Origin: Miltoncostaeaceae bacterium
Lineage (GTDB): Bacteria > Actinomycetota > Thermoleophilia > Miltoncostaeales > Miltoncostaeaceae
DNA: 30,534 bases
Assembly: GCA_035553775.1 (NCBI GenBank)
Contig: DATMJR010000306.1
Location: 1-30,534 of the forward strand
Direction: 5' to 3'
How positions within the stretch are numbered: the first letter of the stretch is position 1; each line of letters begins with the position of its first letter. A program made the translations under genes and the position numbers. Below, one piece after another: positions 7,621 to 11,287 of this stretch. Under the pieces are notes generated by a model that worked only from the letters and a program-made list of their open reading frames with translations, was not told the DNA's origin and did no database searches.

Positions 7621-8111
7621 CCGTCGGCGGGCAGCTCGGGCGCGGTGTCGCGCGCGACCGAGCGGACCCGCCAGGCGGGGCGGTAGTGGGGCAGCGCCTG
7701 GACCTCGCGGTGCGCGAGCCGCCGGGCGCTGGCCGCATCGGCGGCCCAGATCTCGCACTCGTGTACGTCGTGGCGCTCGAAGCGGTCCTCGTGTGCCTCC
7801 CAGAGGGCGAAGGTGACCAGGTAACGCCGGGTGCCCGGGGCCCGCGGCGTCAGCGGCCGCAGGACGCCCAGCGACCACACCGACCCCTCGCCGGCGCTGC
7901 GGGTCTCCTCGCGCCGCCGCGTCAGCGCCGCCTCGGCGGCGCGCCGGGCTTGGTCGAGGTCGGCGGCCTCGATGGCCAGCCGCCCGGCGACGCGGGCCCG
8001 CGACGAGCCCGGCGGGCGGCGCAGCAGCGTGACCTCCCAGGCGGGGACGGGGACGGTCACGCGTGCGGTGCGGGCAGGGGCGTGTGCGGGGACCGGCGCC
8101 GGCCGGTGCAT
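7617..8111 (-). CDS. Hypothetical protein with two tandem homologous small domains
   Basis: ATG overlaps the cyclophilin stop (TGATG). Internal repeat WEVTL...IEAADLDQARRAA...W versus YLVTF...IWAADAASARRLA...W. Confidence 0.6.
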   Translation of the reverse strand: MHRPAPVPAHAPARTARVTVPVPAWEVTLLRRPPGSSRARVAGRLAIEAADLDQARRAAEAALTRRREETRSAGEGSVWSLGVLRPLTPRAPGTRRYLVTFALWEAHEDRFERHDVHECEIWAADAASARRLAHREVQALPHYRPAWRVRSVARDTAPELPADG

Positions 8112-8617
8112 CAGCCGGCCGGGGACTCCTCGATGCGCACGCTGCGTACCCGCTGGTCCTCGCGGGGGCGGTCCCCTCGGGCGGTGGGGGTGGCCTCGAT
8201 CGCATCCACCGCCTCCATGCCCGCGACCACCTCGCCGAAGCCCGTGTGGGCTCCGTCCAGATGCGGCGTCGCGTCGGCGGTGACGATGAAGAACTGGCTG
8301 CCGTTGGTGTTCGGGCCGGCGTTGGCCATCGCCAGCGTCCCGCGCACGAGCGGCCGGGGGTTGATCTCGTCGGCGAACGTGTACCCCGGGCCGCCGCGGC
8401 CGGTGCCCTGGGGATCGCCGCCCTGGATCATGAAGCCGCGGATCACGCGGTGGAACACGGTGCCGTCGTAGAAGCCCTGCGCGGCCAGGCCGACGAAGTT
8501 GCCCACCGTCTGGGGCGCTGCGTCCGCCCACAGGCGGATGCGGATCTCACCCGCATCGGTGTCCAGGACGGCGGTGTAGGCGGTGCCGGGATCGGCGGGC
8601 GGCGGCAGGGTCGGCAT
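8111..8617 (-). CDS. ppiA: Cyclophilin-type peptidyl-prolyl cis-trans isomerase
   Basis: FYDGTVFHRVIRGFMIQGGDP, GGPGYTFADE, LAMANAGPNTNGSQFFI, HLDG.HT.FGEV. Confidence 0.95.
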   Translation of the reverse strand: MPTLPPPADPGTAYTAVLDTDAGEIRIRLWADAAPQTVGNFVGLAAQGFYDGTVFHRVIRGFMIQGGDPQGTGRGGPGYTFADEINPRPLVRGTLAMANAGPNTNGSQFFIVTADATPHLDGAHTGFGEVVAGMEAVDAIEATPTARGDRPREDQRVRSVRIEESPAG

Positions 8618-8743: not shown

Positions 8744-8771
8744 AACGGCACTGTTGGAAGGACGGTGGCCC

Positions 8772-9800
8772 GTGGGTCGAGGGAGTGAGCGCGGACGTTT
8801 GCGGCGCGCCTGTGTGGCGGGCGCCGTTGCCGTGTTCGGCCTCATGCTCCCCGCCGGCGCCTTCGCGGCGCCCCTGGTGGCCACCGATGTCGTGTCCGAG
8901 ACGGCCCCGCCGGTCGTCGGCGACGCCGGCGCGCACGTCGTGCGCGCCGCGGCGCCCGCGCCACCCCTTGCGCCGCGCCCCGCCGCCCCGGTGGCGGAGC
9001 AGGTCACCCCCGTGGTCGCCCCGGTGGTGCGCACGGTCGCCCCGGTGGCCGATCGGGTGGCCCCGGTGGCGGAGCCCGTGGCGCGCACGGTGGCACCGGT
9101 GGCCCGGCCGGTGGTCGAGCAGGTCGTTCCGGTCGCCCGGCCGGTGGTCGACACCGTCGCCCCGGTCGCCGCGCCCGTGGCGCGCGCGGTGGCGCCCGTC
9201 GCCCGGCCGGTGGTCGACACCGTCGCCCCGGTCGCCGCGCCCTCGGGCGCGGCGCCGGCCCTCCGTCCGGCCGCCCGGGTCGTCACCCCGGTGACCGATC
9301 GACCGCCGCCCGTGGCCGCGCCGGCGGTCGCCGCCCCCATGGCGGGTACCGCGGCCGCGGAGCCGGCGCTGCCGGCACCCGCCGCCGCCGGGCGCGCGAC
9401 CGATGCCGCGCCACGGGCCTCGCGCGCAGGCCGCGCCCCGCCGCTCCCCGCCGCCCGCGTGACCCCGGCGGTGGCGTTGCCGCAGGCAGATGCGCGCCCC
9501 TCCGGTGGGTCGCCATTCGCGGGTGCGCCCGCTGCGGCGGATGCGGCGGACCTGTCGTCCGCCGCCGCGGCCCGCAACGCGTCCCCCGCGGTGCCCGCGC
9601 GCGGCCCCGATCCGCCGCCTGTGCCGGTCCCGGCCGGGTCGACGGGCGTCGCCGGACCGCCGGGGCTCTCGCTTCTCCTCTTCGCCGCCCTGGTGGGCCT
9701 GCTCGCGGTGTCCGCACCCGGGGGCTGGCGACGGGTCGTGCCCCTCGTCGTGGGACGTCCCCCTGCGGCGCTCGTGCTTCTGACGGAACGGCCTGGCTGA
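8772..9800 (+). CDS. Exported/membrane-anchored Pro-Ala-Val-rich repeat protein ending in a TM helix and ERPG
   Basis: GTG with GGAAGGA RBS; signal-like RLRRACVAGAVAVFGLMLPAGAFA; 11-mer repeats; C-terminal LSLLLFAALVGLLAV followed by RR...TERPG*. Confidence 0.65.
   Translation: MGRGSERGRLRRACVAGAVAVFGLMLPAGAFAAPLVATDVVSETAPPVVGDAGAHVVRAAAPAPPLAPRPAAPVAEQVTPVVAPVVRTVAPVADRVAPVAEPVARTVAPVARPVVEQVVPVARPVVDTVAPVAAPVARAVAPVARPVVDTVAPVAAPSGAAPALRPAARVVTPVTDRPPPVAAPAVAAPMAGTAAAEPALPAPAAAGRATDAAPRASRAGRAPPLPAARVTPAVALPQADARPSGGSPFAGAPAAADAADLSSAAAARNASPAVPARGPDPPPVPVPAGSTGVAGPPGLSLLLFAALVGLLAVSAPGGWRRVVPLVVGRPPAALVLLTERPG
9003..9243 (+). repeat. About 7 imperfect 33-nt (11-aa) tandem repeats, consensus VAPVARPVVDT
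   Basis: VTPVVAPVVRT / VAPVAEPVART / VAPVARPVVEQ / VVPVARPVVDT / VAPVAAPVARA / VAPVARPVVDT, with one shortened unit. Confidence 0.85.
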
Positions 9801-9882
9801 GTCCCCGCGGGGGCCCACGCCAGACGCCCGGCCGATCCCGGCCCGGGCGGTCATCCGTTCCGATCAGAGAGGTACCGACACC

Positions 9883-11166
9883 ATGAGGTTCCGCATCGTG
9901 GGCGCCTGCGTGATGGCGCTCGCCCTGGGCAGCGGCTCCGCGCTCGCCACCTCGGCCGGCCCGCCATCCGGCGGCAACTCGGCCAGCCAGTCCAACGCGA
10001 CCACCCAGGTCGTGCCCGTGGCCGTCTCGGCCCCGATCACCGCGCCGGTGAACGCCGCCGTGCCGATCGCCGTCGGCGGCTCCAACGGCGACACCACCCA
10101 GTCCAACGACACGGCCGTCGACGGTTCGGCCACCAACAACCGCACCACGCAGGTGGCCCTGCAGTCCTCCGGCGGTGACGCGAAGCACCACAAGGGCTCC
10201 GGCTCCGGCGGCAACTCGGCCAGCCAGTCCAACGCGACCACCCAGGTGGTGCCCGTGGCCGTCTCGGCCCCGATCACCGCGCCGGTGAACGCCGCCGTGC
10301 CGATCGCCGTGCTCGGCTCCAACGGCGACACCACCCAGTCCAGCGACACGGCCGTCGACGGTTCGGCGACCAACAACGCGACCGACCAGGTGATCGTCCA
10401 GGACGCCGGCAGCAACGGCTCCAACTCGGCCAGCCAGTCCAACGCGACCACCCAGGTGGTGCCCGTGGCCGTCGCGGCCCCGATCACCGCGCCGGTGAAC
10501 CTCGCCGTGCCGATCGCCGTGCTCGGCTCCAACGGCGACGTCACGCAGTCCAACGCGACCTACGTGGACGGCTCGGCGACCAACAACCGCACCGGCCAGA
10601 CGATCGTGCAGGCGACGCGTCCGCACGGTGGGAAGGGCTGCACCGACGCCGCCGGCGCCGGCAACAGCGCCAGCCAGTCCAACGCCACCACGCAGGTGCT
10701 GCCGATCGCCGTCGCGGCCCCGATCACCGCGCCGGTGAACCTCGCCGTGCCGATCGCCGTGCTCGGCTCCAACGGCGACGTCACGCAGTCCAACGCGACC
10801 TACGTGGACGGCTCGGCGACCAACAACGCGACCGACCAGGTGATCGTCCAGGGTGTCGGCGCCGACGACGGGCACAAGAACGGCACGGCCCTGTCGGCCC
10901 AGGACGACGGAACCGCCCCCTCCGGCGGCATCACGCAGTCCAACGAGACCTACGTGGACGGCTCGGCGACCAACAACCGCACCGAGCAGCTGATCGTGCA
11001 GGGCGCCGGCCTCAACTCGGCCTCGCAGTCGAACGCGACCACGCAGCTGATCCCGATCGCCCTGGCGCTGCCGATCACCGCGCCGGCCAACCTGGCCGCC
11101 CCGGTCGCCCTCGGCCTGCCCGCCCTGCCGACCCTGCCCCTGCCGGCCCTGCCCGTCGGGGTCTGA
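9883..11166 (+). CDS. Secreted N/Q/S/T-rich repeat protein with chaplin/curlin-like motifs (candidate functional amyloid)
   Basis: Signal peptide MRFRIVGACVMALALGSGSALA, RBS AGAGAGG, strong GC3 codon bias and 4 full plus 2 half repeats. Confidence 0.85.
   Translation: MRFRIVGACVMALALGSGSALATSAGPPSGGNSASQSNATTQVVPVAVSAPITAPVNAAVPIAVGGSNGDTTQSNDTAVDGSATNNRTTQVALQSSGGDAKHHKGSGSGGNSASQSNATTQVVPVAVSAPITAPVNAAVPIAVLGSNGDTTQSSDTAVDGSATNNATDQVIVQDAGSNGSNSASQSNATTQVVPVAVAAPITAPVNLAVPIAVLGSNGDVTQSNATYVDGSATNNRTGQTIVQATRPHGGKGCTDAAGAGNSASQSNATTQVLPIAVAAPITAPVNLAVPIAVLGSNGDVTQSNATYVDGSATNNATDQVIVQGVGADDGHKNGTALSAQDDGTAPSGGITQSNETYVDGSATNNRTEQLIVQGAGLNSASQSNATTQLIPIALALPITAPANLAAPVALGLPALPTLPLPALPVGV
9976..11115 (+). 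repeat. Intragenic 210-240 nt tandem repeats (NSASQSNATTQ...DGSATNN..Q)
   Basis: Units start at 9976, 10213, 10423, 10663 and 11014 (half unit). 10468-10587 is identical to 10708-10827. Confidence 0.92.
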
Positions 11167-11197
11167 CCACCACGCGGGTGCACTGATTCCGTCCACC

Positions 11198-11223
11198 GGG
11201 TGCGGGCCCTCGGGCCCGCACCC
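11198..11223. terminator. GC-rich hairpin between convergent genes (putative bidirectional terminator)
   Basis: Perfect 12-bp inverted repeat gggtgcgggccc-tc-gggcccgcaccc. Confidence 0.7.
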
Positions 11224-11287
11224 CGACCTTTGGGAGGCGCTCGGGAACGGTTCTTATGTCGCACACGGTCAGACGGAGCCCGTCCCC

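Follow-up and report, generated by a model that had tools for sequence, protein, structure and literature searches.

Known bacterial functional amyloids are few and unrelated to one another. They include curli, Fap, chaplins, TasA and phenol-soluble modulins, and each new family has taught another solution for safe export, nucleation and tethering. Three of them have a partner that nucleates the fibre or is bound to the cell: CsgA has CsgB, FapC has FapB, and the short chaplins have the long ones. The Thermoleophilia are abundant, almost uncultured soil actinobacteria, and their cell surface is essentially unstudied. Here we describe a two-gene locus in the genome of a Miltoncostaeaceae bacterium of this class (GenBank assembly GCA_035553775.1). 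The locus lies in a stretch of 30,534 nucleotides (nt), positions 1 to 30,534 of the forward strand of contig DATMJR010000306.1, which is referred to as the window. One gene encodes a repeat protein, referred to as the subunit, and the gene upstream of it encodes a membrane protein, referred to as the anchor. An initial annotation made from the letters of the window had proposed the repeat protein as a new functional-amyloid or surface-fibre protein with chaplin-like and curlin-like motifs. It took the repeat gene alone and missed the conserved anchor gene, which, judged from sequence, is the strongest clue to function.

The curlin repeats carry an N-x-hydrophobic-x-hydrophobic-x-Q zipper, and CsgA elongates by a head-to-tail geometry (PMC10192328). 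FapC has conserved Asn/Gln ladders (PMC12392863), and the chaplins are controlled by the sigma factor BldN (PMC6101532). We compared the locus with these systems. In the reading to which we give a probability of about one half, the Thermoleophilia have a two-gene cell-surface system whose secreted repeat protein is tethered to the cell and stacks on itself into a surface fibre.

Repeat architecture of the subunit

The open reading frame (ORF) of the subunit has a third-position G+C content of 0.98, the same as neighbouring real genes, in a window of 74% G+C. Read from the sequence, its signal peptide has an n-region MRFR followed by a hydrophobic core and a predicted cleavage site between ALA and T. 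A hidden Markov model (HMM) of the repeat, seeded with the four clear copies and refined by iteration through the full set of homologues, returned exactly the four full and two half copies that the initial annotation had placed behind the signal peptide. The four full units are 80–91% identical in pairwise comparison and are joined by Gly/charged linkers of 3–16 residues. At the DNA level they appear as a repeat with a period of 210, 2.9 copies and 83% matches (Tandem Repeats Finder). The mature chain is dominated by Ala (16.6%), Thr (10.9%), Val (10.9%), Gly (10.4%), Ser (10.2%), Asn (8.7%), Pro (7.2%) and Gln (6.5%), and its only aromatic residues are three Tyr, with no Phe or Trp. The earlier description of a protein rich in N/Q/S/T/G/A/V, almost free of aromatics and ending in an LP-rich tail, here the last 13 residues, is borne out. 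So is the remark that the chaplin Cys pair is missing, as the mature chain has a single Cys, which is located in a linker. The subunit has no paralogue in the same genome.

We aligned 114 repeat units into a profile (A1), which defines a unit of about 67 positions, or about 65 residues. Proteins of this family contain at least two copies of the unit, and the subunit belongs to it with six HMM matches. The near-invariant positions of the unit are Q5, Q11, N26, G35, G38, A52, N54, Q59, and Q63. Column statistics over these diverged units reveal that conserved and variable columns alternate strictly (i, i+2) along three long segments, namely Q.A.Q.A.N.Q, A.A.A.A.Q..P.N, and V.Q.N.A.A.A.A.N.N.T.Q.A.Q. 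Gln, Asn, Gly and Ala are near-invariant at the alternating positions, and the intervening positions are variable. The polar Asn/Gln ladder that had been proposed for the window's protein is hence a conserved Asn/Gln/Ala/Gly pattern of the whole family. A turn with the sequence S-P-G-D-D-G-D-V is also common across the family. The window's clade differs in the second segment, with Val/Ile in place of the buried Ala/Gln and Pro at exposed positions. Alternating conservation is as expected for tightly packed β-sheets with one face buried; a packed β core would give such a pattern, and disorder would not. The zipper of curlin repeats (PMC10192328) and the Asn/Gln ladders of FapC (PMC12392863) follow the same design rule.

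Three other properties of the subunit were considered. It has 16 N-x-S/T sequons, compared with 6.8 ± 2.3 in shuffled sequences, and its close relatives P0002 and P0003 are likewise enriched. As P0005 and P0008 have none, the enrichment is not a conserved trait, and N-glycosylation was rejected as a property of the family, being clade-specific at most. A lipoprotein was rejected because the sole N-terminal Cys, at position 9, is too early for a lipobox and is missing in homologues. A sortase substrate was rejected too, since LPXTG and LAXTG are absent from both subunit and anchor, and sortase (PF04203) was not found in the host genome, which is 85% complete.

The anchor and its linkage to the repeat gene

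The stop codon of the anchor ORF is 82 nt 5′ of the repeat gene, on the same strand. The anchor is rich in Ala (27%), Pro (19%) and Val (17%), and matches no Pfam or NCBIfam model. Its stalk has seven starts of an 11-residue repeat within aa 78–140, the first at 78, a second register from 89, and then one every 11 residues from 96 to 140. We compared 29 loci, comprising the window and 28 loci fetched from relatives. A same-strand upstream gene of the anchor layout is present in 27 of them, with its stop about 160–210 nt before the first repeat unit. The anchor C-termini share a common layout, in which a Gly/Ser-rich segment is followed by a membrane helix, A-P-G, a basic stretch, and a final [E/D/A][R/H/T]PG. 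This last motif ends each of the 27 aligned anchor tails. Within the window's genome, three of 13,370 frames of at least 100 aa end in [ED][RH]PG, and the window's anchor is the only one of the three with a membrane helix. We know of no sorting signal of the form [E/D]-[R/H/T]-P-G. This end is predicted to be on the cytoplasmic side and is conserved among distant anchors.

Outside the window's clade, 16 loci have anchors that carry one to four copies of the subunit's own repeat, and the subunits of these loci end directly after the last unit. Six anchor-bearing loci, the window included, have a hydrophobic subunit tail that is LP-rich or of the D-P-x-G-x-V type, and their anchors have no detectable repeats. 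This contrast is a description rather than a statistical test, because the groups are related lineages. The repeat-bearing anchors fit templated stacking better than simple tethering.

Predicted fold and self-docking of the subunit

The AlphaFold2 model, based on a 48-row family alignment, is all-β, with a predicted local distance difference test score (pLDDT) of 67 and a predicted template modelling score (pTM) of 0.55. The repeat cores have pLDDT values of 70–87 and the linkers low values, which fall below 50 for aa 327–360. Superimposition of the whole model on all PDB structures with the program VIA yielded almost entirely β-solenoids and rolls. At the top of the list is the CsgA fibril of E. 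coli (8enq_A, Z 9.5, root mean square deviation (rmsd) 8.6, 102 of 111 residues aligned), followed by the Rhagium antifreeze protein (6xnr, Z 8.0), SufD/UreD, Pontibacter CsgA, RTX rolls, RsaA, and FHA. As these Z scores are near background, the VIA list describes the shape of the model and not its kinship. For a second model, containing units 2–4 and built with a better-registered alignment, FapC (9u4u_A) is the top match in both VIA (Z 4.6, rmsd 3.9) and Foldseek (E 2.3e-4, template modelling (TM) score 0.12–0.16), weakly in each. The AlphaFold DB clusters contained only uncharacterised proteins and one chaplin-named entry that is not meaningful (E 9e-3, TM 0.11), and searches of the ESM Atlas by shape and by features gave chance-level rows. 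The β-solenoid expected in the initial annotation is supported in so far as the model is all-β and resembles β-solenoids and cross-β fibres; it is weakened by the moderate confidence of the model and by the bias of the predictor towards solenoids.

We then inspected a two-copy prediction of the mature protein. Its score is 0.70 in three runs, compared with 0.00 for the best of three controls. Of 30 proteins solved as homodimers, 20 reached this score, as did one of 23 solved as single chains; these counts hold only roughly here because a custom alignment was used. The predicted interface is head to tail and involves residues 300–412 of copy 1 and residues 30–138 of copy 2. On copy 1 it covers unit 4, the C-half and the terminal N-half, including the C-half/N-half end at residues 348–412; on copy 2 it covers unit 1 and the beginning of unit 2. 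The prediction supports possible self-binding of the subunit. Counted by halves, the chain contains five N-halves and five C-halves, of which the final pair is ordered C then N, and an N-half is therefore found at both chain ends. The relatives P0005, P0007 and P0018 have a C-half first and an N-half last. Such half-unit overhangs could be docking faces.

Relation to curli, Fap and chaplins

The subunit has no match to Pfam or NCBIfam models even at E ≤ 10, and in a profile search no chain sequence in the PDB, FapC (9u4u and 9nqd) included, was matched at E ≤ 10. Six-frame searches were made over the whole genome. The ORF was not matched by the chaplin model PF03777 at E ≤ 1. With the curlin model PF07012, nothing in the genome matched at that threshold, although E. 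coli, the positive control, did. One genus of large genomes, with 9–11 chaplin matches each, served as the chaplin positive control. Alignment of A1 by hhalign with 14 chaplin domains from those genomes (A3) gave a probability of 0.9% over 12 columns, which contain only the string S-P-G..G.V.Q, and alignment with E. coli CsgA gave 0.3%. Homology to chaplins and homology to curlin were rejected by these HMM and profile–profile tests. The chaplin-like and curlin-like motifs of the initial annotation are a compositional resemblance and not homology. The cysteines of the chaplin intradomain disulphide, C36 and C54, do not vary among the aligned chaplins, and the subunit lacks this pair. Chaplin genes were found in three of 151 genomes of the phylum, all of one genus, and in none of that sample's few Thermoleophilia genomes. 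The curli component CsgG (PF03783) was not found in the 85%-complete genome of the window.

In organisation, the locus has features of all three systems. Like curli, it has a secreted subunit of imperfect repeats with alternating Asn/Gln and small hydrophobics that would face inward, for which stacked β layers and head-to-tail docking are predicted, and in many relatives of the window a second, cell-bound protein bears the repeat. Different from curli, where CsgA units are 19–23 contiguous residues, the units of the subunit are about 65 residues long and have Gly/charged linkers, and the anchor is an integral membrane protein instead of an outer-surface nucleator. FapC is similar in having few long imperfect repeats joined by variable linkers, which in FapC loop out of the cross-β core (PMC12392863). 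For the Greek-key cross-β layer that each FapC repeat forms, the counterpart in the subunit is the weak top match of the model of units 2–4 to FapC. However, fapABDEF-like genes are absent beside the cassette, and the family has 4–15 units compared with the three preferred by FapC. With the chaplins, the locus shares the character of an actinobacterial, Sec-exported, hydrophobic-plus-polar surface set with cell-bound long and free short forms, the short string S-P-G..G.V.Q, and, in relatives, a dedicated sigma factor adjoining the genes, comparable to BldN control (PMC6101532). In contrast to the chaplins, subunit and anchor have neither the Cys pair nor the LAXTG sortase signal by which the long chaplins are sorted to the wall. 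The system resembles nucleated surface fibres of imperfect repeats, is unrelated in sequence to the known ones, and has its own type of anchor.

Proposed mechanism

In the proposed mechanism, the subunit would be exported by Sec, and each unit of about 65 residues would fold into β layers. Alternate inward Gln, Asn and Ala, and in the window also Val and Ile, would pack and form hydrogen-bonded ladders. The units would then stack into a β-solenoid-like rod with the Gly/charged linkers looped out. The rod would have two open ends, one formed by the N-terminal unit and the other by the C-terminal C-half and N-half, and their head-to-tail docking would give rise to a fibre or an extended coat, which may have amyloid-like stability. 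The anchor would tether the fibre as a type I membrane protein, with a Pro/Ala/Val-rich stalk that could reach across the wall. Where the anchor has one to four units of its own, as in more distant relatives, it would act as a template or nucleator, comparable to CsgB and to the long chaplins. Because the anchor of the window's clade has no repeat, the hydrophobic LP-rich tail of the subunit would be the likelier means of attachment there.

A wider claim, which we put forward tentatively and hold to be somewhat doubtful, is that a fibre or functional-amyloid system evolved in the Thermoleophilia with an origin separate from those of curli, Fap, chaplins, and TasA. Its parts would be a secreted, head-to-tail stacking subunit of 65-residue repeats and a type I anchor with an ERPG end that doubles as the nucleator in most lineages, and in many it would have its own sigma factor and a candidate anti-sigma factor, a HicB-domain protein with a membrane helix.

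Points against a fibre and alternative explanations

Several observations weigh against a self-stacking fibre. The confidence of the models is moderate, with pLDDT 67 and pTM 0.55 for AlphaFold2 and 0.56 for the Atlas ESMFold model, and the better-registered alignment of units 2–4 did not raise it (66.8). AlphaFold2 is known to over-predict β-solenoids for repeats (PMC11795689). Foldseek found nothing below E 0.8 for the whole model in the PDB. The structural Z scores are near background, 7–8 being ordinary according to the tool, and are accompanied by large rmsd values; one further match is to a polyproline-II antifreeze bundle (7jjv_B, Z 6.3, rmsd 2.9). The N-half of the unit contains four Pro, which is unusual for an amyloid core. 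The like units of a repeat protein alone may cause self-docking in silico. The window's anchor has no detectable repeat unit (repeat HMM, best E 3.9), and hence the window has no obvious nucleator. Finally, no RNA run holds the stretch, and its sequence occurs in soil metagenome DNA runs only.

The repeat protein could instead be a monomeric cell-surface β-solenoid, an adhesin or wall coat held by the anchor, which does not polymerise and in which the number of units only sets the length. The anatomy and the anchor linkage are equally expected for such a protein, many of the structural neighbours are monomeric solenoids (FHA, EtpA, UpaB, RsaA, SufD, and pectate lyase), and the unit number of homologues, which varies from 2 to 15, fits a variable length. 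We consider it unlikely, though worth serious attention, since it does not account for the head-to-tail docking of two copies (0.70 versus 0.00 for the best control), the repeat-bearing anchors suit templated stacking better, and no family member carries a binding or enzymatic domain.

A largely unstructured spacer or matrix protein, rich in Ser/Thr/Asn and possibly glycosylated, would make the β fold an artefact of the predictor's repeat bias. The moderate to low pLDDT, the documented solenoid bias of AlphaFold2 (PMC11795689) and the excess of sequons over shuffled sequences (16 versus 6.8 ± 2.3) point in this direction. Disorder would hardly give the strict i, i+2 pattern in which Q/N/A/G are conserved across 114 diverged units, and the relatives P0005 and P0008 have no sequons, which together make this explanation improbable. 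An ice-binding or calcium-binding β-roll, using flat Thr/Asn-rich faces or a G-x-N-G-D turn, is suggested by the Rhagium antifreeze protein (6xnr, Z 8.0), MpAFP (3p4g), and RTX rolls (Z 5–6), all of which match weakly, and by the family turn S-P-G-D-D-G-D-V. These matches are at background level and reflect the generic shape of a solenoid; moreover, there is a single acidic turn per 65 residues in place of a nonapeptide array, and type I secretion genes are absent nearby. We therefore regard a β-roll of this kind as very improbable.

The tethered, self-stacking fibre, if true, would be the first functional-amyloid system for the Thermoleophilia. A repeat-bearing membrane anchor beside a dedicated sigma factor is a layout that gives a clear testable hypothesis, and a long, linker-separated repeat with Ala/Gln/Asn packing would offer a new scaffold for engineered fibre materials. 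Even if the subunit is only a monomeric coat, genome annotation would gain a name for a conserved surface module of two genes and for its ERPG-ended anchor.

Family size and distribution

An exhaustive HMMER search of 1.84 billion representative proteins found 55 relatives of the subunit, seven of them below 1e-30, and a word-indexed search found eight. All relatives are unnamed or labelled hypothetical, and one cluster member is labelled Miltoncostaeaceae bacterium. All 64 family proteins collected carry 2–14 units, so the repeat is far beyond chance. No family model, solved relative, name or paper was found for the repeat, and a search of one literature collection found no paper linking amyloid with Thermoleophilia taxa. 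The repeat defines an unnamed family, in agreement with the initial proposal that the multi-repeat protein could belong to an undescribed one.

The repeat is present in 36 of 401 sampled Thermoleophilia genomes and is concentrated in two families (12 of 79 and 22 of 76 genomes). It was not found in the genomes of five other families of the class (0 of 79, 0 of 61, 0 of 28, 0 of 24, and 0 of 44). One relative in the same family (G015, loci L018–L021, contigs C123 and C161) has six paralogous repeat-protein genes with 32 unit matches, and at least one of these paralogues (L021) has no adjoining anchor gene. In two relatives, the subunit or anchor frame is broken into adjoining ORFs (L044 2864–4818 on the reverse strand; L053 3620–4939 and 4956–7296 on the forward strand). 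Either frameshifts in the repeat DNA or errors of assembly could explain these split frames.

The closest relatives of a housekeeping gene of the window are 90–94% identical, and most of them are from metagenome-assembled genomes (MAGs) labelled Thermoleophilia or Miltoncostaeaceae. Seven MAG records (L070, L078, L083, L088, L091, L096, and L101) contain an acyl-CoA dehydrogenase that is 85–94% identical to the window's gene, under the titles Bifidobacterium breve, Alphaproteobacteria, Dehalococcoidia, Acidobacteriia or Acidobacteria. The labels or bins of these records are probably wrong.

Feature coordinates, gene neighbourhood and candidate regulators

Table 1. Positions of the features of the repeat and anchor genes, and of candidate regulator genes in related loci.
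Feature	Locus	Position	Strand	Basis
Anchor gene, encoding 342 aa with a signal peptide, a stalk rich in Pro/Ala/Val, a C-terminal membrane helix and a basic tail on the cytoplasmic side; start GTG 8772 behind GGAAGGA at 8757–8763	Window	8772..9800	+	
Anchor signal peptide: Arg-rich n-region, hydrophobic core, cleavage between AFA and AP	Window	8775..8867	+	Translation
Stalk tandem 11-residue repeats, V-A-P-V-A-R-P-V-V-D-T type	Window	8984..9287	+	Tandem Repeats Finder, periods 33 and 66 nt
Anchor C-terminal transmembrane helix, followed by WRR	Window	9663..9725	+	Alignment with the corresponding helix of 26 other anchors
Basic 24-residue cytoplasmic tail ending E-R-P-G	Window	9726..9797	+	Conserved in aligned anchors
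Likely ribosome-binding site GAGAGG, 11 nt 5′ of ATG 9883	Window	9866..9871	+	By eye from sequence
Repeat-protein (subunit) gene, 427 aa	Window	9883..11166	+	ORF list, repeat HMM, third-position G+C
Sec signal peptide, predicted cleavage after ALA (aa 22)	Window	9883..9948	+	Sequence; homologues share layout
Repeat unit 1, aa 32–95	Window	9976..10167	+	HMM profile 1–67, E 2e-12
Repeat unit 2, aa 111–174	Window	10213..10404	+	HMM, E 8e-13
Repeat unit 3, aa 181–244	Window	10423..10614	+	HMM, E 1e-14
Repeat unit 4, aa 261–324	Window	10663..10854	+	HMM, E 2e-15
Isolated C-half unit, aa 335–374, preceded by a 26-aa low-confidence Gly/Asp linker	Window	10885..11004	+	HMM 38–66, E 1e-5
Terminal N-half unit, aa 378–414, within the predicted head-to-tail interface	Window	11014..11124	+	HMM 1–33, E 7e-4
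LP-rich C-terminal end (...LPALPVGV), 13 residues	Window	11125..11163	+	Similar ends in clade relatives
11-bp G+C hairpin after the stop codon, likely terminator common to the convergent GMC oxidoreductase gene	Window	11198..11223	+	Fold
Divergent sigma-70 family gene	L022	3627–4262	-	
Divergent sigma-70 family gene	L045	1601–2293	-	
Divergent sigma-70 family gene	L047	7645–8238	+	
Divergent sigma-70 family gene	L043	1406–2194	-	
Divergent sigma-70 family gene	L039	8723–9304	+	
Gene of HicB-family-domain protein with membrane helix	L050	2043–2600	-	
Gene of HicB-family-domain protein with membrane helix	L056	7618–8175	+	
Gene of HicB-family-domain protein with membrane helix	L049	927–1718	-	

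Many of the more distant loci have a sigma-70 family gene (regions 2, 3, and 4) that is divergent from the anchor gene and 44–195 nt upstream of it. Behind the sigma gene, a HicB-family-domain protein with a C-terminal membrane helix is encoded, which is an unusual layout; this protein could be an anti-sigma factor. The sigma-70 gene is absent beside the window's cassette, and a tblastn search for the HicB-domain membrane protein had no match in the window's 85%-complete genome. A scan of the window for sigma-70 promoters found no site. The region after the repeat gene (11167–11250) has a folding energy of -44.6 kcal/mol with a z of -2.0, and the terminator scan does not include the hairpin listed in Table 1 because its T run is weak.

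In the window and a syntenic relative locus (L020), a cyclophilin gene is located upstream of the cassette and a GMC oxidoreductase gene downstream. The cyclophilin-type prolyl isomerase has no signal peptide, and its gene is divergent and directly upstream of that of the Pro-rich anchor (8111–8617 in the window and 5074–5577 in L020, both on the reverse strand). The placement of a prolyl isomerase beside a Pro-rich anchor may be a coincidence.

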